The notes under the pieces were generated by a model. It did no database searches. It was given only the letters and a program-made list of their open reading frames with translations, and had not been told where the DNA came from. Of a DNA stretch of 64,000 nt, positions 10,230 through 61,598 are shown piece by piece. Every line of letters starts with the position of its first letter. Position 1 is the stretch's first letter. Position numbers and translations under genes: made by a program. The DNA is from an uncultured Mycoplasmatota bacterium (GTDB taxonomy: Bacteria; Bacillota_I; Bacilli_A; RF39; UBA660): contig URIY01000001.1 of assembly GCA_900547995.1 (NCBI GenBank), forward strand, positions 2,912 through 66,911, read 5' to 3'.

Positions 10230-11022
10230 TATGCACCTCAATTTGTGGATATGGTATCTTAATATTTTCTTTATCAAATAAATTCTTAATTTCTTTCATT
10301 ATTAATCTTTGTACTTCATATTGTTTATAAGACTCTGTTTCAGCCGTAATTCTAATAATTACAGCACTATCTGCAAGTTCATTTATACCAAGTACTTTAA
10401 TATCACTTTTTAAAAATGGTATTCTTTTATTTTTCTTGATATCAATAAACAAATTATTTAATAATTTTTCTACTTTTTCATAGTCTTCCTCATATGCAAC
10501 AGATACGTCAACAAGGGCAAATGATGACATTTGACTATAATTTATTACTTCTGAAATATTTCTATTTGATAAAATTTTAACCTCACCCGTATAACTTCTT
10601 ATACGTGTTGTTTTAAGTCCAAGACCAATAACCTCTCCTTTAAAATCTCCAACACTTATTATATCACCTATACAATATTGATTTTCAAATATAATAGTCA
10701 TTCCTGATATAAAATCTTTAAGCAAATCTTGAAGAGCAAGACCAACTACAAGTCCAAGTACACCAAGTGAAGCAATTAATGATTTAGTATCCACACCAAA
10801 AATATCTAAAATCATTAAAAGGGCAACTATTAAAATAAAATATTTAACAACATTATATACTAACGAATAAATAGTTTTTTGTTTATTAGAAATATTTTTT
10901 TTAATTTTAAAAAATCTTTTTAATAGTTTTTTACAAATTAAATTAAGTAAAAAAGATATAATAATAATCAATATAGGAGCAACAATCTCCTTAACTAGTA
11001 TTTTATCAAGCATACTATTCAC
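10213..11022 (-). CDS. MscS-family small-conductance mechanosensitive channel
   Basis: 269 aa. TM segments followed by ...GLALQDLLKDFISGMTIIFENQYCIGDIISVGDFKGEVIGLGLKTTRIRSYTGEVKILSNRNI..., the MscS beta-domain signature. Confidence 0.75.
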   Translation of the reverse strand: MNSMLDKILVKEIVAPILIIIISFLLNLICKKLLKRFFKIKKNISNKQKTIYSLVYNVVKYFILIVALLMILDIFGVDTKSLIASLGVLGLVVGLALQDLLKDFISGMTIIFENQYCIGDIISVGDFKGEVIGLGLKTTRIRSYTGEVKILSNRNISEVINYSQMSSFALVDVSVAYEEDYEKVEKLLNNLFIDIKKNKRIPFLKSDIKVLGINELADSAVIIRITAETESYKQYEVQRLIMKEIKNLFDKENIKIPYPQIEVHNGKGI

Positions 11023-11890
11023 CTATATTAATTACTTCAAGTATTCTATTTAAATCAGCTGTATTACTAAATGATATTTCAATCTTATGATTTCTAACCT
11101 TAACTTTAGAATCAAGTTTTTCACTCATTAGTTCTTCAATATATTTATACTCATCATTAGAATCTTGTCTATTTATTTTTACTTTTTTTTCAATTGTTTT
11201 ATCGCTAGTTATTTTTTCTATATCTCTAACTGGCATTTTCTTTTCAACTATTTCATTTGCCAGTTTTTTAATTTCTTCTTCATCAGATAATTTACTAAGT
11301 ACCCTTGCATGTCCCATAGATATATCATTTGATACAACTAAATTTTGAACATCATCAGGTAATTTTAATAATCCTAGCATATTTGTAATATGGCTTCTAC
11401 TTTTACCTACTTTTTTAGCAAGTTCTTCTTGTGTTAAATGTAAATTATTTAACATTAATTCATATGCTTTTGCCTCTTCCATCGCATTTAAATTTTCTCT
11501 TTGTAAATTTTCAAGAAGAGCTATTTCCATCATTTGTTCATCTGTAAAAGTTCTTATGATGGCTGGAATAGTTGTTTTACCTGCTAATTTACTTGCACGA
11601 ACACGTCTTTCACCTGCAATTATTTCATAACCTTTTATGCTTTTTTTAATTATAACTGGTTGAAATACACCATGTTCTTTTATTGATTCTGCAAGTTCAT
11701 TAAGTGCATTTTCATCAAATACTTTTCTTGGTTGATATGGATTTGGTCTTAATTCATCAAGATTTACTTCAATAATTTCTTCATTAGATGCAGAATCATA
11801 AATTTGTTTTTCAATACTTTCAACATCTAAATTTTCTGTATTAAAAAGTTGTTCCAATCCACGTCCTAATGCTCTTTTTTTATTATCCAT
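11015..11890 (-). CDS. parB: chromosome partitioning protein ParB (Spo0J)
   Basis: 291 aa. ParB N-terminal motifs (NPYQPRKVFDE..., GERRVRASKLAG) and HTH (SRSHITNMLGLL); immediately downstream of soj. Confidence 0.85.
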   Translation of the reverse strand: MDNKKRALGRGLEQLFNTENLDVESIEKQIYDSASNEEIIEVNLDELRPNPYQPRKVFDENALNELAESIKEHGVFQPVIIKKSIKGYEIIAGERRVRASKLAGKTTIPAIIRTFTDEQMMEIALLENLQRENLNAMEEAKAYELMLNNLHLTQEELAKKVGKSRSHITNMLGLLKLPDDVQNLVVSNDISMGHARVLSKLSDEEEIKKLANEIVEKKMPVRDIEKITSDKTIEKKVKINRQDSNDEYKYIEELMSEKLDSKVKVRNHKIEISFSNTADLNRILEVINIGE

Positions 11891-12702
11891 TAGTTACCTC
11901 CATTTTCTTCTTTTGCGGCTCTTTCGTTTCTTTCTATAACTTCTTTAGCTAGATTTAGGTATGCTTCTGTCCCTCTGCTATGTGGGTCATACGCTAAAAT
12001 AGGTTTCCCATGACTTGGTGCTTCAGATAAGCGAACAAGTCTAGGTATAATTGTATCATAAACTCTTTCTTTAAAATAACTCTTTATATCTTCAACTACT
12101 TCTAACCCAAGGTTGGTTCTATTATCAAGCATAGTTAAAAGAACGCCTTCTATATCAAGAGTTGGATTTAAACTCTTTTGAGCAAGCATTATTGTACTAA
12201 GTAGTTGCATTATTCCTTCCAACGCAAAAAATTCACATTGTACTGGAATTATTACTGAATCTGATGCTGTTAAAGCATTTGTAGTTAATACTCCAAGTGA
12301 TGGTGGACAATCAATGATCACAAAATCAAACATATCACGAGCTTGATCTAAATATTTTTTTAGCTGACCACCCTTTACAAATCCAGGTTCATTTCTACTT
12401 TTTTCCATTAATTCTATATCAGCACCTGCTAAATTAATAGTTGCAGGAAGTACATAAAGATTTTTAAATTTAGTCTTAATCATAACTTCTTTTAATGTAG
12501 CATTATCTATCAATAAATCATATACACTTTTACTAATATCTGCCTTGTTTATACCAATTCCTGTTGTTGTATTACCTTGTGGATCTAAATCTACTAATAA
12601 TACTTTCTTTTTTAATACTCCAAGTGAGGCTGCCAAATTAATGCTAGAAGTAGTTTTACCAACTCCACCCTTTTGATTTACTAATGAAATAATTTTTCCC
12701 AT
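11890..12702 (-). CDS. soj: chromosome partitioning ATPase ParA (Soj)
   Basis: 270 aa. Deviant Walker A KGGVGKTT and ParA/MinD fold motifs. Confidence 0.9.
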   Translation of the reverse strand: MGKIISLVNQKGGVGKTTSSINLAASLGVLKKKVLLVDLDPQGNTTTGIGINKADISKSVYDLLIDNATLKEVMIKTKFKNLYVLPATINLAGADIELMEKSRNEPGFVKGGQLKKYLDQARDMFDFVIIDCPPSLGVLTTNALTASDSVIIPVQCEFFALEGIMQLLSTIMLAQKSLNPTLDIEGVLLTMLDNRTNLGLEVVEDIKSYFKERVYDTIIPRLVRLSEAPSHGKPILAYDPHSRGTEAYLNLAKEVIERNERAAKEENGGN

Positions 12703-31218: not shown

Positions 31219-32064
31219 TTACCTCTCACTCTTCTTATGATATTCATTATATACATCACTTTTAGTCATTTTTCTTTCTTTAGCAACTAATTTTGTGGCT
31301 TCTTTTACATCAAATCCTTCTTTAATATATAAATTAACATGTTCAATAATTGAAAGATTATCATATGTTTTTTCTTCGTAATTGCCATCAATGACAATAA
31401 CAAACTCTCCCTTTGCATCTTTAACTTGTTCTCTGATATTTTCTAATGTATCACGATAAATCTCTTCAAACTTTTTACTTATTTCCCGGGAAATACAAAT
31501 TTTCCTATTTCCAAGGACATCATACATATCATCAAGTGTTTCTAGTAAACGATGTGGAGCCTCATAAAAAATTAATGTATATGGATAATTTTTTAAATCT
31601 TCCAACTCTTTTTTTCGTTTACTTGATTTATTACTTAAAAAACCAAAGAATAAAAATGGTTGGGGATTTAAACCCGAAGCAATTAATGCAGGAACAAATG
31701 CTGTTGTTCCTGGAAGAGCAACAACATTAAAATTATTATCAATGGCTGCCTTAGCCAATTTATATCCGGGATCACTAATTACAGGAGTTCCTCTATCACT
31801 TACTAAACCAACATTTTTACCTTCCTTTAAATAGTCTATTAATTTATTACTTGTTACATCTTCATTATAACTGTGACTTGACACTAATTTTTTACTAATT
31901 TCAAAATGTGATAATAACAAAGATGTTACTCTTGTATCTTCAGAAAAAATGACATCAACTTCCTTTAGAGTATTCAAACATCTTATACTAATATCATCTA
32001 AATTACCAATTGGTGTTGGTATTAAATATAATGTTGGACTATTATCATAACTTTTTTGTGACAT
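31219..32064 (-). CDS. rsmI: 16S rRNA (cytidine1402-2'-O)-methyltransferase RsmI (YabC)
   Basis: 281 aa tetrapyrrole-methylase fold (LYLIPTPIGNLDD..., SDRGTP...SDPG). Confidence 0.8.
   Translation of the reverse strand: MSQKSYDNSPTLYLIPTPIGNLDDISIRCLNTLKEVDVIFSEDTRVTSLLLSHFEISKKLVSSHSYNEDVTSNKLIDYLKEGKNVGLVSDRGTPVISDPGYKLAKAAIDNNFNVVALPGTTAFVPALIASGLNPQPFLFFGFLSNKSSKRKKELEDLKNYPYTLIFYEAPHRLLETLDDMYDVLGNRKICISREISKKFEEIYRDTLENIREQVKDAKGEFVIVIDGNYEEKTYDNLSIIEHVNLYIKEGFDVKEATKLVAKERKMTKSDVYNEYHKKSER
31481..31494. promoter_or_regulatory. Noc-binding site (NBS) ATTTCCCGGGAAAT, perfect 14-bp palindrome, inside rsmI
   Basis: Exact match to the B. subtilis NBS consensus 5'-ATTTCCCGGGAAAT-3'. A CCCGGG-centred palindrome is improbable by chance in a ~28% GC genome. 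Confidence 0.5.
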
Positions 32065-37918: not shown

Positions 37919-37936
37919 ATGTTTCACGTGAAACAT
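37919..37936. promoter_or_regulatory. parS site 1 (ATGTTTCACGTGAAACAT, perfect palindrome)
   Basis: Contains the exact 16-bp parS consensus TGTTTCACGTGAAACA. Confidence 0.8.
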
Positions 37937-38026
37937 TTAATTGCAAATCAAAAGAAACTATATAATAGTATCTAATTTTTATATATTAATTATTATAATA
38001 TTTTTTTGTAAGTTTACATTAAAAAA

Positions 38027-38050
38027 TCAATGTTTCACGTGAAACATTGA
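38027..38050. promoter_or_regulatory. parS site 2 (24-bp perfect palindrome TCAATGTTTCACGTGAAACATTGA)
   Basis: Contains the exact parS consensus core. Confidence 0.8.
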
Positions 38051-38063
38051 TTTATATTATTTC

Positions 38064-38693
38064 TTACATAAATGCACTCATATCAGAATAAGAAATAGGA
38101 GTATTTACATCATCTATATCATAAGATTCTTCATTACAATTTATAAACATTTTCGAAAAGCGACGACCCTTTGATTCATTTAAAACTTTAAACATTTTGC
38201 AAGTTCCCAAATAATACATTAATAAATCATATCCGTTATAATTTGTTGCATTTGAATGTGACTTTTCAAAATTTTTCAAGCGTCCCTTTGCCAATCTTAT
38301 TTTAAATTCTTTTTCTATTTCCTTTATTATTTTTTTCTTAAAAGGTGTTTTTAAAATTGCATTTATTATTTCATTTTCGTCATAGGTTTCCATTCCATAA
38401 TTTAATATAGTAAGGTGTTCCTTAGACCATTTACTTGCATATTTGTCTCCTCTCAGATCTTCATCAGAGATTGGATAAGTAAATGATGCGCCTAAAATAC
38501 ATTCATTAACCTTTTTATTATTTAATGTTTTCCTCATAACAGTTTCAAATTCTTCTGTAGAACTTATTTTTTTATTTTTCTTTAATACTTTATGCAATAA
38601 AAGTTCAAGTTCCTTCATTGACAAAATTGTACTTTCCAAATATGAATCTTTTGCATTTGGATAATTTTTTATAAATAATATTTCATTTTCCAT
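38064..38693 (-). CDS. hypothetical protein (209 aa) embedded in the parS array
   Basis: ORF track. No recognisable motifs. Three parS copies lie upstream and two downstream. Confidence 0.4.
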   Translation of the reverse strand: MENEILFIKNYPNAKDSYLESTILSMKELELLLHKVLKKNKKISSTEEFETVMRKTLNNKKVNECILGASFTYPISDEDLRGDKYASKWSKEHLTILNYGMETYDENEIINAILKTPFKKKIIKEIEKEFKIRLAKGRLKNFEKSHSNATNYNGYDLLMYYLGTCKMFKVLNESKGRRFSKMFINCNEESYDIDDVNTPISYSDMSAFM

Positions 38694-38778
38694 AGCTAAA
38701 TTTCCTTTCTTATTGGAATATATTACAGCATTAAATATTATATGTCAATAAGTATTCTTTTTATTATTAAACCAAAAG

Positions 38779-38800
38779 TAATGTTTCACGTGAAACATTA
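38779..38800. promoter_or_regulatory. parS site 3 (22-bp perfect palindrome TAATGTTTCACGTGAAACATTA)
   Basis: Contains the exact parS consensus core. Confidence 0.8.
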
Positions 38801-38908
38801 GAATATATATTTATATAGAATGCCTTTTTGGGTAACAATAACAAAATTTATTTTTCAATTTTATTATCTAATGTAATAGTTTCTTTAAAAAATTATTTTT
38901 CATAATAA

Positions 38909-38940
38909 TAAAACAATGTTTCACGTGAAACATTGTTTTA
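38909..38940. promoter_or_regulatory. parS site 4 (32-bp perfect palindrome TAAAACAATGTTTCACGTGAAACATTGTTTTA)
   Basis: Contains the exact parS consensus core with an extended symmetric flank. Confidence 0.8.
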
Positions 38941-38958
38941 AATTAAATTCTTTTTATT

Positions 38959-38976
38959 ATGTTTCACGTGAAACAT
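38959..38976. promoter_or_regulatory. parS site 5 (ATGTTTCACGTGAAACAT), abutting the gyrA stop codon
   Basis: Contains the exact parS consensus core, immediately 3' of gyrA. Confidence 0.8.
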
Positions 38977-44637: not shown

Positions 44638-45090
44638 TTATTCACCTATTTTCCTTCTCCTTAATACAGAATCTAATCTGGTCGCTCTTAAAATTTGATT
44701 TTCGATACTTTCAAATGATATACATAATTCTAACTGATAACCATTTATAAATTCTAATGTTGTACATTTTCTTTCTCTTTTATAATCAGTCAAATTATTT
44801 AAAGATATCCAAGAACATTCTTTACCCCTTGGTGATGATGTTGGAAAGAAAATAATATTCTTTGTCTCTTCGATTATAATTGGTGATTTATAGTTTATAC
44901 CCATTAAATGTTTAGTTCCTTCAAATCGACCCATATAAGAACTTCCAAAAAATTTACAACTTTCATCAATTATTGACATTGCGGATTTTTCCACATAAAA
45001 TTCATCCTCTTTCTCAACAACTTTAGAAATTTTATTATTTATCCATATTATTGCACATGTTGATGAATTAATTTCATACGTCTTTTTCAT
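44638..45090 (-). CDS. comK: ComK-family competence transcription factor-like protein (probable start at MKKTYEI)
   Basis: ...IIDESCKFFGSSYMGRFEGTKHL...IIFFPTSSPRGKECSWISL...SFESIENQILRATRL... aligns with B. subtilis ComK (VDRSCRFFGSSYAGRKAGTYEV...IFLFPTLSSTRPQCGWIS...SFENQVYRTAWL). Confidence 0.6.
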   Translation of the reverse strand: MKKTYEINSSTCAIIWINNKISKVVEKEDEFYVEKSAMSIIDESCKFFGSSYMGRFEGTKHLMGINYKSPIIIEETKNIIFFPTSSPRGKECSWISLNNLTDYKRERKCTTLEFINGYQLELCISFESIENQILRATRLDSVLRRRKIGE

Positions 45091-45231
45091 TTTATTCCCC
45101 CTATTTATATCTTTCTCCAAAAAAAGAAATTATCCTTGTTATATCATACAAATTTGTCAAATTTTATCATTTTTTGTCGCAGATTTGACATTTTTGTCGT
45201 TTTTGACAAAAAATGTAGAAAAAAAGAACTT

Positions 45232-47931: not shown

Positions 47932-48154
47932 TGTGGAAAATTATTTCCCAGGCAATAATAAATTAACTAAATCACAGCATATTCACATATTTTTCCACAA
48001 GGTAAAGTCTTTAAAAATAAAGAAAAAAGCTAATAATTAACATTAACTGTGGAAAAAATATTAACTATGTGAATTGAAATATATAAAGTTTTCCACAAAT
48101 TATGTGAATTTAAAATAAAACCTTTAATTTTTAACAAAAAAAGTATGTGGAAAA
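47932..48154. other. oriC, dnaA-rpmH part: five regularly spaced DnaA boxes (TTTTCCACA type)
   Basis: TGTGGAAAA at 47932..47940, 48048..48056 and 48146..48154; TTTTCCACA at 47991..47999 and 48089..48097. Orientation alternates with ~45-60 bp spacing. AT-rich region follows. Confidence 0.7.
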
Positions 48155-54842: not shown

Positions 54843-54941
54843 AGTTTCTTTTTTTCATTTTGGGAAATAATTTATTGAATTATTTCCCAAAGTGTAGTAT
54901 TATATAGATAAGAATAAAAAGAGTGTAGGAGGCTAGTTATA

Positions 54942-56795
54942 ATGAAAGATAATAGGCAAGTAGTAGTATTAAATTTAGATGATATTCTACCTAATCGTTT
55001 TCAGCCACGTATTAAATTTGATGAAAAGGCTATTGTAGAATTATCAGAATCAATAAAAGAACATGGTGTTATTCAACCAATCATTGTTAGAAAAATAGAT
55101 GATAAATTTGAAATAATTGCTGGTGAAAGAAGATATAAGGCTAGTGTTATGGCTGGTAAAACAACTATTCCAGCTATTGTTGTTGATTTAAATGATAAAG
55201 AAAGTTCGGAAATTGCTTTAATTGAAAATGTACAAAGAAAAGATTTAACTCCAATAGAAGAGGCTATCTCATATCGAAAAATATTTGATATGGGAAATAT
55301 TACTCAAGAGGAATTAGCAGCCAAACTTGGTGTGTCACAATCAACTATTGCTAATAAAATGCGTCTTTTAAATCTTGATGATGAAGTTCAGGATGCACTA
55401 TTAGATGAAAAAATTTCAGAAAGACATGCAAGATCATTATTAAAGTTATCTAAAATGTCAGAACAAAGAGAAATGTTAAAAAGAATAATAACTGAAAGAC
55501 TAACTGTTAGAAGAACAGACGAAGAAATTGAAAAGATAATAAAGGGGAATAATATGAATATAATGGATAGTTTTAATAATAAAGTTGAAGAACCAATTCA
55601 AAATAATATAAATAATAACGAAGGTAATAATAATCCATTTAATATAAATGTGGATTCTAATCAAGCAGTAACTAACACAAGTACAGAAAATTATAATAGT
55701 AATGTTAATAATATAGAAGTATTTGATTTTGCTGATTTTGGAGATAATAATCAAACTGTAAGTCAACCAATAAATAATGTACAAGATATTAACATGCCAC
55801 AATCTCCAATTTTTGAAGATAATAATACATCATCATTTGTACCAAATGAAATTCCAAATGATTTTGTAATGAATAATACAGGTATGGGAAATGATAATTT
55901 TACTAATAATGTTAATCAAAATGTTACTAATAATGTTATGCCTCAAATGCCAATTGTAGATGATACAATTCCAGATATAACAAAACAAGATACTGTTGCT
56001 AATCCTTTTGTTGAAACTCAAGATGTAGTATCTCAAGGTAGTGCAAATGAACAAGAATTTAGTATGCCACAGGCACCAATTATACAAGATAATGAATTCC
56101 AAAAAGTTGTTAATGATGATGATGATAATGATAAAACTATAACTATGGAGCCAATTAATATTAATAATCAAAATACGGAGTTTAATGAATTTACAAATAA
56201 TCAAGTCCCAACTACTAATTCTTTAGATAATGAAAATGATATACAAGATGAGCCTGAAATTAAACAAGGAAGATTTTTCAATATTTTATCTAATGATGTA
56301 GATGATGAAACATCAACAAATAACCAAGAAGAAATGTCATTTAATGGCTTTAATAATCAAATGACTGATAATAATATAAATAATGCAAATGATAATTTAC
56401 CTAATAATGAATATATGGTTAATCAAGAAGAAACTAATAATAATATTTTTAATTCTTTTGGTAATTTTGGTTCAATCGATAAACAAGTTAATAATCAAGT
56501 AAATGATATACCAAATCAAGTAAATTTTGATAATAATATCCCAAATAATACATTTAATTATAATTCAACACCAGTTGAGCCAGTATATGATGATGTTAAT
56601 GAAGAACCTGAAAATAATTATAATAATAATGTAAATAATGCCGAAACAGTAGTTGCAGAACCAACTTTAAAAGATATAATATCTATGATAAGAAAGTGTG
56701 CAGATGATATAGAAAAACAAGGATTTGAGTTAGATTCTGAAGAATTTGATTTCCAAGATATATATCAAGTAATATTTAAAATAAAGAAAAAATAA
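54942..56795 (+). CDS. noc: ParB-family nucleoid occlusion protein Noc-like, with ~400-aa Asn/Gln-rich low-complexity C-terminal extension
   Basis: N-terminal ~200 aa with ParB motifs (FQPRIKFDE..., GERRYKASVMAG) and HTH (SQSTIANKMRLL); canonical position after rsmG. Residues ~210-617 are N/Q/D-rich and compositionally biased. Confidence 0.65.
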   Translation: MKDNRQVVVLNLDDILPNRFQPRIKFDEKAIVELSESIKEHGVIQPIIVRKIDDKFEIIAGERRYKASVMAGKTTIPAIVVDLNDKESSEIALIENVQRKDLTPIEEAISYRKIFDMGNITQEELAAKLGVSQSTIANKMRLLNLDDEVQDALLDEKISERHARSLLKLSKMSEQREMLKRIITERLTVRRTDEEIEKIIKGNNMNIMDSFNNKVEEPIQNNINNNEGNNNPFNINVDSNQAVTNTSTENYNSNVNNIEVFDFADFGDNNQTVSQPINNVQDINMPQSPIFEDNNTSSFVPNEIPNDFVMNNTGMGNDNFTNNVNQNVTNNVMPQMPIVDDTIPDITKQDTVANPFVETQDVVSQGSANEQEFSMPQAPIIQDNEFQKVVNDDDDNDKTITMEPININNQNTEFNEFTNNQVPTTNSLDNENDIQDEPEIKQGRFFNILSNDVDDETSTNNQEEMSFNGFNNQMTDNNINNANDNLPNNEYMVNQEETNNNIFNSFGNFGSIDKQVNNQVNDIPNQVNFDNNIPNNTFNYNSTPVEPVYDDVNEEPENNYNNNVNNAETVVAEPTLKDIISMIRKCADDIEKQGFELDSEEFDFQDIYQVIFKIKKK

Positions 56796-56942: not shown

Positions 56943-57170
56943 TTAATAATCTACTTCAACACTAACAGGGTTCATTCTTATTTTACAATTTTCACACATG
57001 AATAATTGGTTATTTTTAAATGTTTCTTGTGTCATTTTTTTAAATTCAACTCTATATACAAGTCTTTCAAACCCACATGTATCACATTTAAATTTAATTG
57101 CCATTATAATATCTTCTTTGTTTCTTTTAAGTTTTCTAGTCATCGAACTCATATTTATATCCTCCTTCAA
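56943..57170 (-). CDS. small zinc-ribbon protein (75 aa), translationally coupled downstream of the IS91-family transposase
   Basis: CDTCG...CENCK pair of CxxC motifs; ATGA overlap with the transposase stop. Confidence 0.3.
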   Translation of the reverse strand: MKEDINMSSMTRKLKRNKEDIIMAIKFKCDTCGFERLVYRVEFKKMTQETFKNNQLFMCENCKIRMNPVSVEVDY

Positions 57171-58411
57171 GTTACATCAAAACATAGTTTCATTAATGAA
57201 CCACATTTTGGACATTTAATAGGAATCCTATTAAATGATGTCAAAATTGAGTTTTTCCATTTAAGCATAGATCTCATAAAAGGAATTTTTTCTTTTTTTA
57301 TAATTGTAATTAGTTTATCACATAATTTGTTTGATTTATTATAAAAACCATAATATCGTATAGATTTATAATTTGAGGGAAGTAGATGCCTTAATAATTT
57401 CGTAATAAATGATTCTGCTGATTCAGTTATTTCATGATATTCTTCGTGTGTATGATCTGAATAAAACCATGTAACATTTTCTCCATCATATTTTAATATT
57501 CTTGATTCAGCAATAACTGGTCTAGAACAATATCTAGTTACATATCTAATTAATTCTTCAATTGAATTAAACTTATATCCATCATCTTCTAGTTTATTAT
57601 TAACATAGAATCCATTTTTATATTTTAAATCCATTTTGTTTTTAGTGTCTTCAAATGATTTTTTTCCAAAATGTTTTTGCATGTTATCCAATAATATTTT
57701 CATAAATCTTTTTGAAAGAGCATCATAATTGAAATAATTATATTTCTTAAAATTATGATTTTTGTCAATTAATCCTTCAGCAATAATAACATGAATATGT
57801 GGATTAAAATTAAGTGGTCTACCAAATGTATGAAGAAAAGCAAAGAAACCTGGCATTAATTTATATTTATATTTCTTTTTTACTTTCCCGTTAACAATAG
57901 AATAAAGAGTTTTACAAACTGAATCAAATAAAATATCATTAGTAAGAAGGTCGTCAAAGAACCACATGTTTAAATCGTTAGGTATTGTAAATGTAATATG
58001 CCTATGTTTTGTATTAATACATTTTTCCAAAATATTTTGAGTTTTGATTTTTTGAGATTTAATACCACATGAAGAACATAATCTACCTTTACATGTATGA
58101 TGAGAAAAGATAACTTCATCATCTTCAGGACAAACATATACGGAAGCACCGAGATTGTGATTAGCACAGTTAATTATTTTATGTACTTCTTTATCAGCAT
58201 TATTTCGTTTTAAATCAATAGTATTTTTATATTTAGAGTAATACGCATCCCAATGGTCTTCAAATATTTTAGCAATTATACCAGTGGATTTATGGTTTGA
58301 ATTGTTTTCCATAATGATATAGCCATCTTCATCAAATCTATTTTCATCAAAAATATGTTTTTTTGCCCAAGTATTAAAATTATTTATATCTAAATGCTTC
58401 ATATCTATCAC
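57167..58411 (-). CDS. tnpA: IS91-family (HUH Y2, rolling-circle) transposase
   Basis: 414 aa. N-terminal zinc-binding region (HHTCKGRLCSSCG), HUH motif (...FLHTFGRPLNFNPHIHVIIAEGLI...) and the two-tyrosine motif (IRYVTRYCSRPVIAE), plus a C-terminal CPKCG zinc ribbon. Confidence 0.65.
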   Translation of the reverse strand: MIDMKHLDINNFNTWAKKHIFDENRFDEDGYIIMENNSNHKSTGIIAKIFEDHWDAYYSKYKNTIDLKRNNADKEVHKIINCANHNLGASVYVCPEDDEVIFSHHTCKGRLCSSCGIKSQKIKTQNILEKCINTKHRHITFTIPNDLNMWFFDDLLTNDILFDSVCKTLYSIVNGKVKKKYKYKLMPGFFAFLHTFGRPLNFNPHIHVIIAEGLIDKNHNFKKYNYFNYDALSKRFMKILLDNMQKHFGKKSFEDTKNKMDLKYKNGFYVNNKLEDDGYKFNSIEELIRYVTRYCSRPVIAESRILKYDGENVTWFYSDHTHEEYHEITESAESFITKLLRHLLPSNYKSIRYYGFYNKSNKLCDKLITIIKKEKIPFMRSMLKWKNSILTSFNRIPIKCPKCGSLMKLCFDVT

Positions 58412-58480: not shown

Positions 58481-60208
58481 TTATCGTGGTCTTCTCATAT
58501 CATCTCTTGTCATCATATTAGCATTTTGCGTATTTCCAACTTTTGTAATAATACCTGAAATAGTAAATGCATCATATTTTTCATCATCAATATATATTGT
58601 ATAATCACCATTACTTAATTTATCATTTGATATAACAAGATTAGTATAAGATTTATCTGCTTTATAGTTTATAATTTCCTCATCACTACTATTTTTAATC
58701 GTAACTATCTTATCACTTGTAATTGTTTGATTAAAGTTGATCATTACAGAGTTAACGCTTGAATCTTCTCCTGGCATTTGAGCCATTCCTGATGAGCCAG
58801 ATGCAATAAGTGATCCATCAGTAATTTCCAAAACTCCATCATAGTCTAGTGCACCATTTCCATTGTCAGTAGGGCCATATATAATAGTGTTACCACCATT
58901 TATATAAATGTTTCCATTTGCATCTAATCCATCGCCACTTGCATTAACAACAATATTACCACCATTTATTTTAAGTGTACCTGTAGTGCCCGAAAAATTA
59001 TTACTACCAGGTCTATCATATGAAGAGCCATCTCCACCAGCAACATTAATACCATCATCACTTGAATTAATATTAATATTACCACCATTAATATTAATAA
59101 CGGTTGCTTCAACACCTTCATAACTTTTATTTATATCAATATCACCATCATTAATAGTTAAATTATTATCTGCATGTATTCCATCATCACCTGAAGAAAT
59201 AACGAATTTTCCATTTTTAATGATTATTTCGTCATTACTATGGATGCTGTCATCTGACGAATTAATATTAAATTCACCATTATCAATAACAATTGATTCT
59301 TCAGCCTTTAATCCCTTGGCACTTTTATTATCATCGTTACTACCCCAAGAACCCCACTTAGAATTATCTTTACTACTATTTTGACTACCATTTCCAGATG
59401 TAATATCAAAAGTACCATTTTCTATATATAAAATAGTTTCTGCTTGTATACCATCAGTTTCACTATTAATTTTATAAGTTCCACCTTTAATAGTAATAAA
59501 GCCTTGAGTTTCATCACTATCATTAGTAGATTTTATTCCATCACCACTAGATGTAATATCAATTGTCGTATTTTCAAGATAAACATAATCTTTTCCTTTA
59601 ATACCGGTGTTAATACTAATAACTTTAATATCAGTATTTATAATTTTTAAACCATCTTTACTAACAATACCATTTTGATAATTTCCGTTTATAATTAATT
59701 TTCCATCACCATTTATAACTAAGTCATCCTTACTATATATTGTTGCATCAGTGTCATCACTTGTATAATTATCCTTATCTGAAATATTATTTTCACCTAA
59801 TACTGTAATAATTACCTTTTTAGCCTTTTTAACGTATATAGGACTATAATCATATGTTAAGTTTGCACTATCAAGAATTAAATGAACAATATCATTATCA
59901 TCAGCGTCAATAATAATTTGTGCATTTCCTGTACCACTTATATAATAATCACCATTATTTGTAATAGTAAATATATTATTATTTTTTTGAATACTATTTG
60001 TACAAGTCAAATTATCTAAATCTATATTATTATTTTTGTTATAACTTGTATCATAATCATCATCTATGGTAATATTATTACTTTCATTTGTTTTTTTATC
60101 ATCAATATCAATATTTTCTTTATTCAAATAATCACTGAATATATAAATAATTATTCCTATAATTAATACAATAGGTATAAATTTAATTAAATGTTTCAAG
60201 TTCATCAC
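58481..60208 (-). CDS. membrane-anchored beta-helix repeat protein, Cthe_2159-like carbohydrate-binding domain family
   Basis: 575 aa. N-terminal TM anchor, then many degenerate repeats of the type I-x-I-x-S-x-G-D-G-I-x-(S/A) (IDITSSGDGIKS, INSETDGIQA, ISSGDDGIHA, NSSDDGINVA, NASGDGLDA) typical of parallel beta-helix proteins. Confidence 0.5.
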   Translation of the reverse strand: MMNLKHLIKFIPIVLIIGIIIYIFSDYLNKENIDIDDKKTNESNNITIDDDYDTSYNKNNNIDLDNLTCTNSIQKNNNIFTITNNGDYYISGTGNAQIIIDADDNDIVHLILDSANLTYDYSPIYVKKAKKVIITVLGENNISDKDNYTSDDTDATIYSKDDLVINGDGKLIINGNYQNGIVSKDGLKIINTDIKVISINTGIKGKDYVYLENTTIDITSSGDGIKSTNDSDETQGFITIKGGTYKINSETDGIQAETILYIENGTFDITSGNGSQNSSKDNSKWGSWGSNDDNKSAKGLKAEESIVIDNGEFNINSSDDSIHSNDEIIIKNGKFVISSGDDGIHADNNLTINDGDIDINKSYEGVEATVININGGNININSSDDGINVAGGDGSSYDRPGSNNFSGTTGTLKINGGNIVVNASGDGLDANGNIYINGGNTIIYGPTDNGNGALDYDGVLEITDGSLIASGSSGMAQMPGEDSSVNSVMINFNQTITSDKIVTIKNSSDEEIINYKADKSYTNLVISNDKLSNGDYTIYIDDEKYDAFTISGIITKVGNTQNANMMTRDDMRRPR

Positions 60209-60880
60209 CTATAATTCATTTTCTGTAGATACTCTACCTAAATTAACAGTTAAATTACCGTTTCGCGTTCTAATTTCATCAATAAAGTCTTTTTCATTTA
60301 TATTATTTTTTAAACTTATATTATAAGATAATTCAAACATACTACCCATATTTGTTGTTTTAACTTTATTAAGTTCTATATTATTGGTATATTTATCAAA
60401 AATATCATCAAATATATTTGTATAATCTAAATTTTCAGGTATAGTTACTTTTAAACTTTTTTCATTATTCTTTTTCATACCAAAACTACTTTTTTGTAAT
60501 ATTATAAGTGCTAAACTTGTAATTAATGTAAATACAAAAGCATACATAATATGTCCCATACCAACTGCAAGACCAATCGCCATTGCAAAAAAGATACTTA
60601 CAAGTTCTCTAGAGTTACCTTGCATTGATCTAAATCTAATTAAACTAAATGAACCTAAAATCGCAATTGATGTACCAAGATTACCATTAACCATCATAAT
60701 AACAACTTGAACTAAAAGGGGAAGAACGGCAATTGTAATTGCAAAATTCTTACTACACTTTGTACTATACATATGTACAAGAGCAATTATAATTCCAAAT
60801 ATAAGGGCTGCTCCCATACAAATAAGAGCTGTACTAATTGAAAGTGTACCACTGTTACTTTCTAAAATACTATTAAACAT
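60209..60880 (-). CDS. DUF4956-like membrane protein
   Basis: 223 aa, 4-5 TM segments with charged C-terminal domain; overlaps the upstream VTC gene by 8 nt. Confidence 0.45.
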   Translation of the reverse strand: MFNSILESNSGTLSISTALICMGAALIFGIIIALVHMYSTKCSKNFAITIAVLPLLVQVVIMMVNGNLGTSIAILGSFSLIRFRSMQGNSRELVSIFFAMAIGLAVGMGHIMYAFVFTLITSLALIILQKSSFGMKKNNEKSLKVTIPENLDYTNIFDDIFDKYTNNIELNKVKTTNMGSMFELSYNISLKNNINEKDFIDEIRTRNGNLTVNLGRVSTENEL

Positions 60881-61598
60881 TAATTATTCCTTCTTTCATC
60901 ATTTTTTTATAAACATTTCCATATTTAGAAAAGGTTTTAGGAAAAATATTATTATTTGATAAACACTCTACTAACCATCTAGGATATCCATTTAAACTTT
61001 TAATTTCCATTAGATAGTATTTTTCATCACTTAATAATTCTCCTTTATCACCATGTTCTAATTTTAAATCATAATTTCTACTTCTAATATTATTATCAAT
61101 TGTAATTCTTAAATTTTTATCTTGCTTAGCAATGTATGCTTTTCTATCATATGCAAGAAAGACTTTTGGTTTTAAATTATAATGTTTAATCATATAAATA
61201 ATTTCTTTACTTATCTGGGAATCTTTATTAGAAATCTTTTCCATATTTATATATTTATAATAATCTTTAAGGGATAAAGTAATTCTTCTTTTATTAACAA
61301 TACTATTGTATTTTTTCTTTATTTCAAAGAAAACTTCATCATCAAGACTAGGTACATTATAACTTCTTAATCTAAGTTTTTCTTTATATATAGGTTTCTC
61401 AATGGAAGTTCTTACTAACTCATAATCATCAGTATCAAAATATATATTACAAATAGTTGATTTATAAAACTTATCATGATTCATATATTCATTTATTAGA
61501 ATCATTAAATTATGATATTGTTCTTCATTAAGAAGATATTTTTTTTCTACTCTATTAAATATTTCATTTGCCATATTTTTTCCTTTCCACAGTCTCAT
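60873..61598 (-). CDS. VTC-domain (polyphosphate-polymerase-like) protein
   Basis: 241 aa. ...NRVEKKYLL... N-terminus and basic/tyrosine-rich pattern resembling the bacterial VTC-domain family. Confidence 0.5.
   Translation of the reverse strand: MRLWKGKNMANEIFNRVEKKYLLNEEQYHNLMILINEYMNHDKFYKSTICNIYFDTDDYELVRTSIEKPIYKEKLRLRSYNVPSLDDEVFFEIKKKYNSIVNKRRITLSLKDYYKYINMEKISNKDSQISKEIIYMIKHYNLKPKVFLAYDRKAYIAKQDKNLRITIDNNIRSRNYDLKLEHGDKGELLSDEKYYLMEIKSLNGYPRWLVECLSNNNIFPKTFSKYGNVYKKMMKEGIINV

Follow-up and report, generated by a model that had tools for sequence, protein, structure and literature searches.

A Noc-lineage protein that lacks the canonical N-terminal membrane-targeting helix and carries a long, acidic, predicted disordered linker

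We analysed 64,000 nucleotides of DNA from an uncultured Mycoplasmatota bacterium (contig URIY01000001.1 of assembly GCA_900547995.1), which we refer to as a whole as the window, and focused on a gene near its replication origin that encodes a long relative of Noc. Noc is the textbook nucleoid-occlusion factor of Gram-positive bacteria. In the accepted mechanism, an N-terminal amphipathic helix ties Noc–DNA complexes loaded with cytidine triphosphate (CTP) to the membrane. We found that the protein encoded in the window, 617 amino acids (aa) long, retains the conserved domains of Noc, lacks this helix and carries a 367-residue linker between its DNA-binding domain (DBD) and its C-terminal domain (CTD). 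The linker is acidic, predicted to be disordered and studded with conserved short motifs. With moderate confidence, we read the protein as this bacterium's Noc orthologue and its linker as a spacer that displays motifs. Coordinates of all features are collected in Table 1.

The original prediction, made from the sequence and its open reading frames (ORFs), assigned the protein to the Noc/ParB family. Our searches agree and place it in the Noc lineage. Pfam recognized ParB_N at residues 7–98 (E 3.7e-31) and HTH_ParB at residues 100–199, with no further match in the protein. An AlphaFold2 model built with 42 homologues was confident over residues 1–205 (predicted local distance difference test, pLDDT, 63–94). 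The GERR (residues 61–64) and ENVQR boxes are invariant in 42 representatives of the family, and the protein is predicted to retain a CTP-binding ParB-type N-domain. Among solved structures in the PDB, Noc proteins were the best matches, with 202 bits for that of Geobacillus (7NG0/7NFU) and 169 bits for that of Bacillus against roughly 160 bits for Spo0J/ParB. The NCBIfam model for Noc, TIGR04285, scored the protein at 273.8 bits over model positions 1–200 of 255, above the 240.4 bits reached by the window's own Spo0J, whereas a generic ParB model reversed this order (180.9 versus 211.2 bits).

Residues that govern DNA specificity point to the same family. In an alignment to 7OL9, Q133, K139, N144 and R161 of the recognition helices stand opposite Q158, K164, K169 and R186 of Bacillus subtilis Noc, so that three of the four are identical. 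Q133, K139 and R161 are invariant in the 42 representatives, and N144 is nearly so. In Caulobacter ParB numbering, the residues specific for the Noc-binding site (NBS) are Q173, K179, K184 and R201. Bases specific to the NBS are read by the Gln and the Arg, provided that at least one of the two Lys (179/184) is present, while Arg and Gly are absolutely conserved at the corresponding positions of ParB (Jalal et al. 2020; PMC7383237). The window holds a perfect 16-bp B. subtilis-type NBS, TATTTCCCGGGAAATA, which we predict to be the cognate site; the expected number of such sites, counted for the 14-mer core with at most one mismatch, is 0.01.

The other end of the protein is equally Noc-like. 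The short structured C-terminal segment that had been foreseen is a Noc-type dimerization domain of one helix and two strands: AlphaFold2 modelled residues 573–617 with pLDDT 84–93, and hhalign matched the CTD profile to that of canonical Noc with a probability of 97.9% (E 3.8e-13, 49 columns) versus 0.45% for the Spo0J CTD. In a neighbour-joining tree of the N-terminal domain (NTD) and DBD, built with no bootstrap, the long proteins form a single clade that is sister to canonical Noc and separate from Spo0J/ParB. Gene order adds to this picture, with rsmG 5' of the noc-like gene in all loci examined and soj-spo0J directly 3' of the long gene in nine relatives (L014, L016–L019, L021, L023, L024 and L026). 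Judged by its sequence, the 617-aa protein descends from Noc and not from a centromere-binding ParB.

Alignment to the Noc structures further revealed that the N-terminal amphipathic helix, helix alpha2 and the loop connecting them are absent from the protein, because it begins at the ParB_N core (N-terminus MKDNRQVVVLNLDDILPNRFQPR) and its residue 7 already aligns to residue 28 of 7NFU. This N-terminus is fixed: an AGGAGG ribosome-binding site precedes the ATG by 9 nt, and nine codons before the ATG comes an in-frame stop, TAA (54915–54917), making a longer form impossible. The expectation of a normal ParB-like N-terminal region of about 200 residues was therefore right about the domains and wrong about the start, where the first ~21–27 residues of canonical Noc are missing. 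Canonical Nocs recovered in our genome scan are 275–304 aa long, begin with MKxxFS[RK][FL]FG[LF]G and are joined to their CTD by a short linker rich in Lys and Arg. Relatives from the long clade start at the ParB_N core, nearly all within the first dozen residues or so. The membrane-targeting helix was present in all Noc homologues examined by Adams et al. (2015), in whose hands NocNdelta10 was non-functional and a foreign amphipathic helix rescued it (PMC4331003), and exposure of the helix is controlled by CTP (Jalal et al. 2021; PMC8429893).

Two short Nocs bear on the order in which these changes arose. The Noc of Holdemania filiformis (L041, 258 aa) has no N-terminal helix at all, and that of Solobacterium (L038, 272 aa) has a short non-canonical N-terminal extension. 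Since these Erysipelotrichales proteins have no canonical helix and keep a short basic linker, they suggest that loss of the helix preceded expansion of the linker.

We used the N-terminal 205 residues to search 1.84 billion cluster representatives. The best 150 hits were 69–96% identical over this region, except for three at 60–63%, and nearly all of them were proteins of 383–982 aa in total with a long linker. Overall, the long linker is common to more than 150 clusters at 50% identity. The long-linker architecture is a trait of a very large clade and not of a single odd gene. The nearest genome records are metagenome-assembled genomes (MAGs) from gut and rumen, labelled 'uncultured Bacilli bacterium' or 'uncultured Tenericutes bacterium', with 25–33% GC. 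The literature searched yielded no account of a Noc clade with a long linker or without the helix, an absence that does not prove novelty.

The linker itself had been described as a C-terminal tail of about 400 disordered, Asn/Gln-rich residues. The segment is in fact an internal linker of 367 aa, followed by the Noc-type CTD. Its disorder and composition stood up to analysis: AlphaFold2 gave residues 206–570 pLDDT below 50 and no secondary structure, Asn makes up 25.6% of the linker compared with 8.3% in the other ORFs of the window, and Gln makes up 6.8%. Counts of Gln and Asn peak at 35 per 80 aa (residues 460–539), with 58 windows of that size at 30 or more, whereas the other ORFs reach at most 23. 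Acidic residues are just as prominent. Asp (9.0%) and Glu (7.6%) together account for 16.6% of the linker, and these 61 residues face only seven Lys and Arg, for a net charge of about -54; R444 is the sole Arg. Neither Pfam nor NCBIfam has any match within the linker.

We surveyed the linkers of 42 nearer and 141 more distant representatives. In every one of them Asp and Glu far outnumber Lys and Arg, while Asn content lies anywhere from 3 to 26% and some linkers are dominated by Pro or Gln. The conserved properties of the linker are negative charge and depletion of Lys and Arg, not Asn content. Because Asn varies so widely while acidity is constant, the Asn richness of the window protein is a local expression of its 25% GC genome, a by-product and not a selected trait. 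The suggestion that the segment is prion-like holds in one respect, as its Gln/Asn count exceeds the threshold of at least 30 per 80 residues that Michelitsch and Weissman reportedly set for Q/N-rich domains in 2000. Its 16.6% Asp and Glu and the variable Asn content of its orthologues speak against the label. The conserved signal here is charge and motifs, which counsels caution in calling Asn-rich segments from AT-rich genomes 'prion-like'.

Comparisons at the strain and species level revealed how the linker evolves. Ratios of nonsynonymous to synonymous substitution (dN/dS, Nei–Gojobori) between the window gene and such relatives were 0.34–0.49 in the linker, 0–0.055 in the N-domain, 0.02–0.20 in the CTD and 0.04–0.14 in the neighbouring rsmG. 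We also collected about 50 close variants of the protein from independent ENA and Logan assemblies, of which 24 are exactly 617 aa long. Variable columns made up 25% of the linker versus 3% of the N-domain, and all insertions and deletions fell in the linker except for one gap, a single column wide, at the domain boundary (residue 202). Variation in length among strains, which the original prediction had proposed to look for, is real: the variants span 562–622 aa, and the difference lies in the linker. In the 562-aa variant (P0048), 55 aa shorter overall, a 48-residue gap removes the stretch between the first and second copies of a motif of the form MPQxPI. Together, these data describe a linker that is fast-evolving yet constrained.

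Repeat expansion or repeat collapse was considered for the window gene and rejected. Tandem Repeats Finder (TRF) detected only micro-repeats of at most 43 bp in it, and the three MPQxPI copies are not a tandem repeat at the DNA level. Elsewhere in the family, a gene from an uncultured Tenericutes MAG (L010, 5001–6653) encodes a linker in which a 20-aa unit, PTMPTFEAPSMPEVTPEPSA, is repeated in tandem about seven times, almost perfectly. Some linkers of the family have thus expanded by repetition, though not that of the window protein.

Against this variable background, short motifs stand out. The most conserved is a basic Phe-Phe (FF) motif, IKQGRFFNIL, flanked by acidic sequence and corresponding to the family consensus [ILV][KR]PG[KR]FFN[ILF][LF]. 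F445 and F446 are the only invariant columns of the linker among the 42 nearer representatives, and the linker's one Arg sits directly before them. [KR]FF occurs in 42/42 of these proteins versus about 3% of composition-matched shuffles, and in 106/141 of the more distant ones. Three copies of [IM]PxxPI[IVF][EDQ][DE] lie further upstream (family form (N)IP[ST]xPI[IV]E[DE]). Also recovered were IEVFDFADF, conserved in nearer relatives, and FNYNSTPVEPVYD, a counterpart of the family's TDYNKQYDPV at which pLDDT rises slightly. As candidate partner-contact peptides in the linker we list EPEIKQGRFFNILSNDVDD, NMPQSPIFEDNN and FNYNSTPVEPVYDD. A survey of recurrent motifs in 180 proteins found the commonest linker motif of the family to be one of about 30 aa, NPGFMD[IV]DKIxxxAxDI....KPxAxxDxLL, present in 72 of them (P0094, P0116, P0120, L008–L010 and others). 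Neither the window protein nor its closest relatives have this motif; at a comparable place in the linker they carry IEVFDFxDF.

These observations allow a working model of the protein's action. Its domains, specificity residues, NBS, ParABS context, missing helix, disorder, charge, constraint and motifs were read from sequence, and the steps on DNA are taken over from established Noc and ParB proteins. By that precedent, the protein would load at NBS sites, close as a CTP-dependent clamp and spread along DNA. The linker would act as a long, flexible, acidic spacer that displays [KR]PG[KR]FFN[IL], three copies of [IM]PxxPI[IV]E/D and FNYNxxPVxPVYD. The effector contact of the Noc–DNA complex may thereby have shifted from the N-terminal end to the linker, where we presume the basic-FF motif to be the main point of contact. 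On the ParB clamp model, a lumen bounded by two such 367-residue connections of DBD to CTD would be far larger than that of canonical ParB or Noc.

What the FF motif might contact can be suggested only tentatively. Docking of a protein partner is the candidate we would put first, at somewhat under an even chance. A weak, avidity-dependent amphipathic membrane anchor that replaces the lost helix comes behind it as a possibility of lower probability, and other roles take up the remainder. In support of an anchor, the hydrophobic moment of the motif (0.47–0.61), its mean hydrophobicity and its local charge of +2 resemble those of canonical Noc helices (moment 0.53–0.62), and when linker windows are sorted by hydrophobic moment, those over the motif fall within the top ~4%. 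The likeness between motif and helix is confined to [KR]-F-F-x-hydrophobic. A relocated helix by homology was ruled out by profile scores, which leaves a functional analogy for which the hydrophobic moment is weak backing.

Several points weigh against our reading of the protein and its motif. At the level of Noc identity, the 273.8 bits on TIGR04285 fall short of that model's curated cut-off of 315 bits, position 144 holds Asn and not Lys, and the 64 kb contain only one perfect NBS. As for the motif, about a quarter of the distant clade members lack an exact [KR]FF. A position-specific scoring matrix made from 27 canonical Noc N-termini failed to detect the FF motif when run over 180 linkers: scores lay between -3 and -10 compared with self-scores of 25–39, the median z was 0.27, and 65 of the 180 top hits fell on the motif. 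The motif is also short, preceded by Pro-Gly and set amid acidic sequence, and these acidic flanks should be repelled by anionic membranes. Its conserved Pro, Gly and Asn look more like those of a protein-binding than of a lipid-binding motif, and the full-length AlphaFold2 model docks no linker motif on a domain. Finally, every functional step we ascribe to members of the clade is extrapolated from their sequences.

A bolder proposal is that nucleoid occlusion has been rewired in this clade, the helix having been lost and the invariant basic-FF motif, in the middle of a polyanionic disordered linker of 170–730 aa, having taken over its task. We regard this as rather unlikely. Were it true, CTP clamps loaded at NBS sites would trail long acidic arms whose internal motifs hold the nucleoid to the membrane or to a partner from division or replication. 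The linker would then also account for the enlarged lumen of the clamp and would surround the DNA with an electrostatic brush.

Of the competing explanations, the one that fares best, though we still think it improbable, denies the linker any function. On this account, slippage and composition-driven expansion in an AT-rich genome lengthened a DBD–CTD connection that need only be flexible and hence tolerates insertions, and the protein is a partly decayed Noc that has lost its membrane function. Linker lengths from ~130 to 730 aa, indels that segregate among strains, the 20-aa tandem repeat of L010 and the short helix-less Nocs of Holdemania and Solobacterium are all in keeping with it. Its other arguments meet direct counterparts in the data. 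Although dN/dS in the linker is ~6–18 times that of the domains, it stays below 1. Amino-acid bias follows genome composition, as the range of Asn contents attests, but all linkers, however much Asn, Pro or Gln they contain, are alike acidic and depleted of Lys and Arg. Free drift would also have to accommodate an invariant FF and motifs that recur in more than 100 clusters sharing less than 50% identity. Very strong purifying selection acts on the N-domain and CTD, so the protein is in use, and the gene has been kept at its ancestral position in the sampled genomes of low-GC gut Bacilli.

Very improbable, by comparison, is the idea that the 617-aa protein is the chromosome-partition ParB and that its linker modulates condensation of the partition complex. 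ParB_N and HTH_ParB domains, a match to TIGR00180, a position near the origin and a strong parS array 16 kb away would all suit such a protein. But canonical soj and spo0J genes are encoded separately in the window, so the 617-aa protein is not the centromere-binding ParB. The Spo0J they provide has the N-terminal LGRGLEQLF and an RxxG-type helix-turn-helix (HTH), whereas the 617-aa protein has Gln and Arg at the positions that are invariably Arg and Gly in ParB, does not present the ParA-activating LG[RK]GL peptide at its N-terminus, has a CTD unrelated to that of Spo0J and groups with Noc in the tree. Two variants of this idea were also discarded. A sole ParB of a reduced genome is ruled out by soj-spo0J at 11015–12702, and a gene fusion between noc and a spo0J downstream of it, with the ParB N-terminal peptide ending up in mid-protein, is excluded by the Noc-type CTD and by intact soj-spo0J in the window and in relatives.

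It is scarcely credible that the long ORF arose from an error of assembly or sequencing or from read-through of a pseudogene: AT-rich low-complexity DNA is prone to misassembly and long open stretches also exist on the reverse strand, but the gene recurs as ~50 full-length, near-identical copies in the independent assemblies, TRF found no long DNA repeats, the linker has 0 stops in its coding frame against 22–147 in the other five, conserved domains at both ends share that one frame, and linker dN/dS is below 1. The two failures that the original prediction had named, an expanded or collapsed repeat and a frameshift that leaves the tail untranslated, are both dispelled by these data; the ORF is real and translated. 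Two antisense ORFs of 100 and 123 aa that it had set aside as spurious do exist, and we share that verdict: the corresponding open stretches of relatives differ in where they lie and how far they reach, which is consistent with a by-product of AT-rich Asn, Asp and Glu codons. The encoded sequences are rich in Ile, Phe, Leu and Tyr.

Placing the protein beside known systems clarifies what is shared and what is new. With Noc of B. subtilis and Geobacillus thermoleovorans (7OL9, 7NFU, 7NG0, 6Y93; TIGR04285) it has in common ParB_N with GERR and ENVQR, the Gln/Lys/Arg specificity residues in the HTH, the Noc-type CTD, a gene located after rsmG and, in relatives, before soj-spo0J, and a perfect B. 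subtilis-type NBS in the genome. It differs in the missing helix, alpha2 and loop, which make it by alignment equivalent to NocNdelta26, in having a long acidic disordered linker where that of Noc is short and Lys/Arg-rich, in Asn for Lys at the second permissive position, and in a TIGR04285 score below the cut-off. Spo0J and chromosomal ParB share the superfamily fold, the CTP-clamp NTD and the HTH, with 43–46% identity over NTD and DBD; the window protein departs from them in Q...R for R...G, in the absent LG[RK]GL peptide and in its CTD. The short Nocs of Holdemania and Solobacterium have the same QKNR specificity residues, the noc-soj-spo0J context and no canonical helix, but they lack the acidic disordered region and the FF and IPxxPI motifs.

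Two further systems offer looser parallels. The C-terminal linker of FtsZ is a disordered, hypervariable spacer, and a conserved short peptide contacts membrane anchors and regulators. FtsZ is an unrelated protein with its peptide at the extreme C-terminus, whereas the window motifs are internal and a folded dimerization domain follows; by analogy, the FtsZ linker and terminal peptide would be the closest functional likeness. Among ParB-family clamps, KorB of plasmid RK2 and the PRTRC proteins include some whose partner contacts lie outside the core NTD–DBD. They too are CTP clamps, and the PRTRC model TIGR03734, at 555 positions, is far longer than canonical ParB. They are, however, plasmid-borne, act at other DNA sites and have no detectable similarity to the linker, and TIGR03734 matched the window protein weakly and only over the N-terminal domains.

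The clade amounts to a very large natural group of helix-less Noc orthologues in gut and rumen Bacilli, spread over the more than 150 clusters at 50% identity. Should its members still carry out nucleoid occlusion, they would represent a second mode of coupling between a ParB-type clamp and its effector, and they would serve as a natural experiment on the influence of linker length and charge on the loading, sliding and condensation of clamps. Should they no longer do so, they would illustrate the fate of a Noc that has abandoned membrane tethering.

Table 1 Features of the noc-like gene and of the surrounding window
Feature	Position	Strand	Basis or remark
Complete ORF, 617 aa plus stop, probable Noc orthologue with long linker	54942..56795	+	ORF list, Pfam, family-model and structure matches
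Ribosome-binding site AGGAGG, 9 nt before ATG	54927..54932	+	Read directly
ParB_N CTPase-type and HTH DNA-binding domains (aa 1–205), starting at the ParB_N core	54942..55556	+	Pfam, PDB alignment, AlphaFold2
Specificity positions Q133, K139, N144, R161	55338..55424	+	Alignment to 7OL9
Acidic Asn-rich disordered DBD–CTD linker (aa 206–572, 367 aa)	55557..56657	+	Composition, AlphaFold2, dN/dS, indels
Motif IEVFDFADF (aa 258–266)	55713..55739	+	Regex scan
Three motif copies, MPQSPIFED (aa 285), MPQMPIVDD (aa 333), MPQAPIIQD (aa 375)	55794..56090	+	Motif scans
Basic-FF motif IKQGRFFNIL (aa 440–449), acidic flanks	56259..56288	+	Invariant columns, shuffles
Motif FNYNSTPVEPVYD (aa 538–550)	56553..56591	+	Regex scan; small pLDDT rise
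Noc-type C-terminal dimerization domain (aa 573–617)	56658..56792	+	AlphaFold2, hhalign
Antisense ORF, 100 aa	55500-55802	-	ORF list
Antisense ORF, 123 aa	55833-56204	-	ORF list
Perfect 16-bp NBS TATTTCCCGGGAAATA, predicted cognate site	31480..31495	.	Motif scan, expected 0.01
NBS-like palindrome TATTTCCCAGGCAATA, 2 mismatches	47942..47957	.	Motif scan
Five perfect parS sites (TGTTTCACGTGAAACA) at 37920, 38031, 38782, 38917, 38960	37920..38975	.	Motif scan
Canonical soj	11890..12702	-	tblastn, NCBIfam
Canonical spo0J	11015..11890	-	tblastn, translation, NCBIfam
ComK-family protein (PF06338, E 2.4e-42)	44638-45120	-	Pfam
IS91-family transposase (Y2_Tnp and Zn_Tnp_IS91)	57167-58411	-	~370 bp downstream of the noc-like gene
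Conserved trio: Cthe_2159-domain protein, DUF4956, VTC-domain protein	58481-61598	-	Downstream of noc in all strains

The gene is set near the replication origin. GC skew switches near 47–48 kb of the window; dnaA and dnaN lie on one side of the origin, and the other side runs through rnpA, yidC, jag, mnmE, mnmG and rsmG to the noc-like gene. The soj-spo0J pair is found ~42 kb from the noc-like gene, on the opposite side of oriC. As nine relatives keep a Bacillus-like noc-soj-spo0J adjacency, a rearrangement in this lineage has split noc from its former neighbours. A second, NBS-like palindrome upstream of dnaA, in the oriC region, is not significant alone, since 8 of 100 shuffles reached two hits at three or fewer mismatches.

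The five-site parS array is likely to comprise the loading sites of Spo0J. Most of its sites extend to AATGTTTCACGTGAAACATT, and they flank an orphan ORF of 209 aa (38064..38693, minus strand) between gyrA and the genes for the signal recognition particle (SRP) RNA, tadA and dnaX. This ORF has no Pfam or NCBIfam match, and its homologues form only 12 clusters. The genome of a relative (L090) has an ORF 78% identical to it with the same parS layout, three sites upstream and two downstream.

Downstream of the noc-like gene, the IS91-family transposase is absent in six other strains or relatives (L004–L007, L088 and L089), where the Cthe_2159-domain gene comes directly next. The VTC domain encoded downstream of noc may point to a link with polyphosphate. 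Within the dnaN–gyrB origin cluster, Pfam also identified a ComK-family protein.

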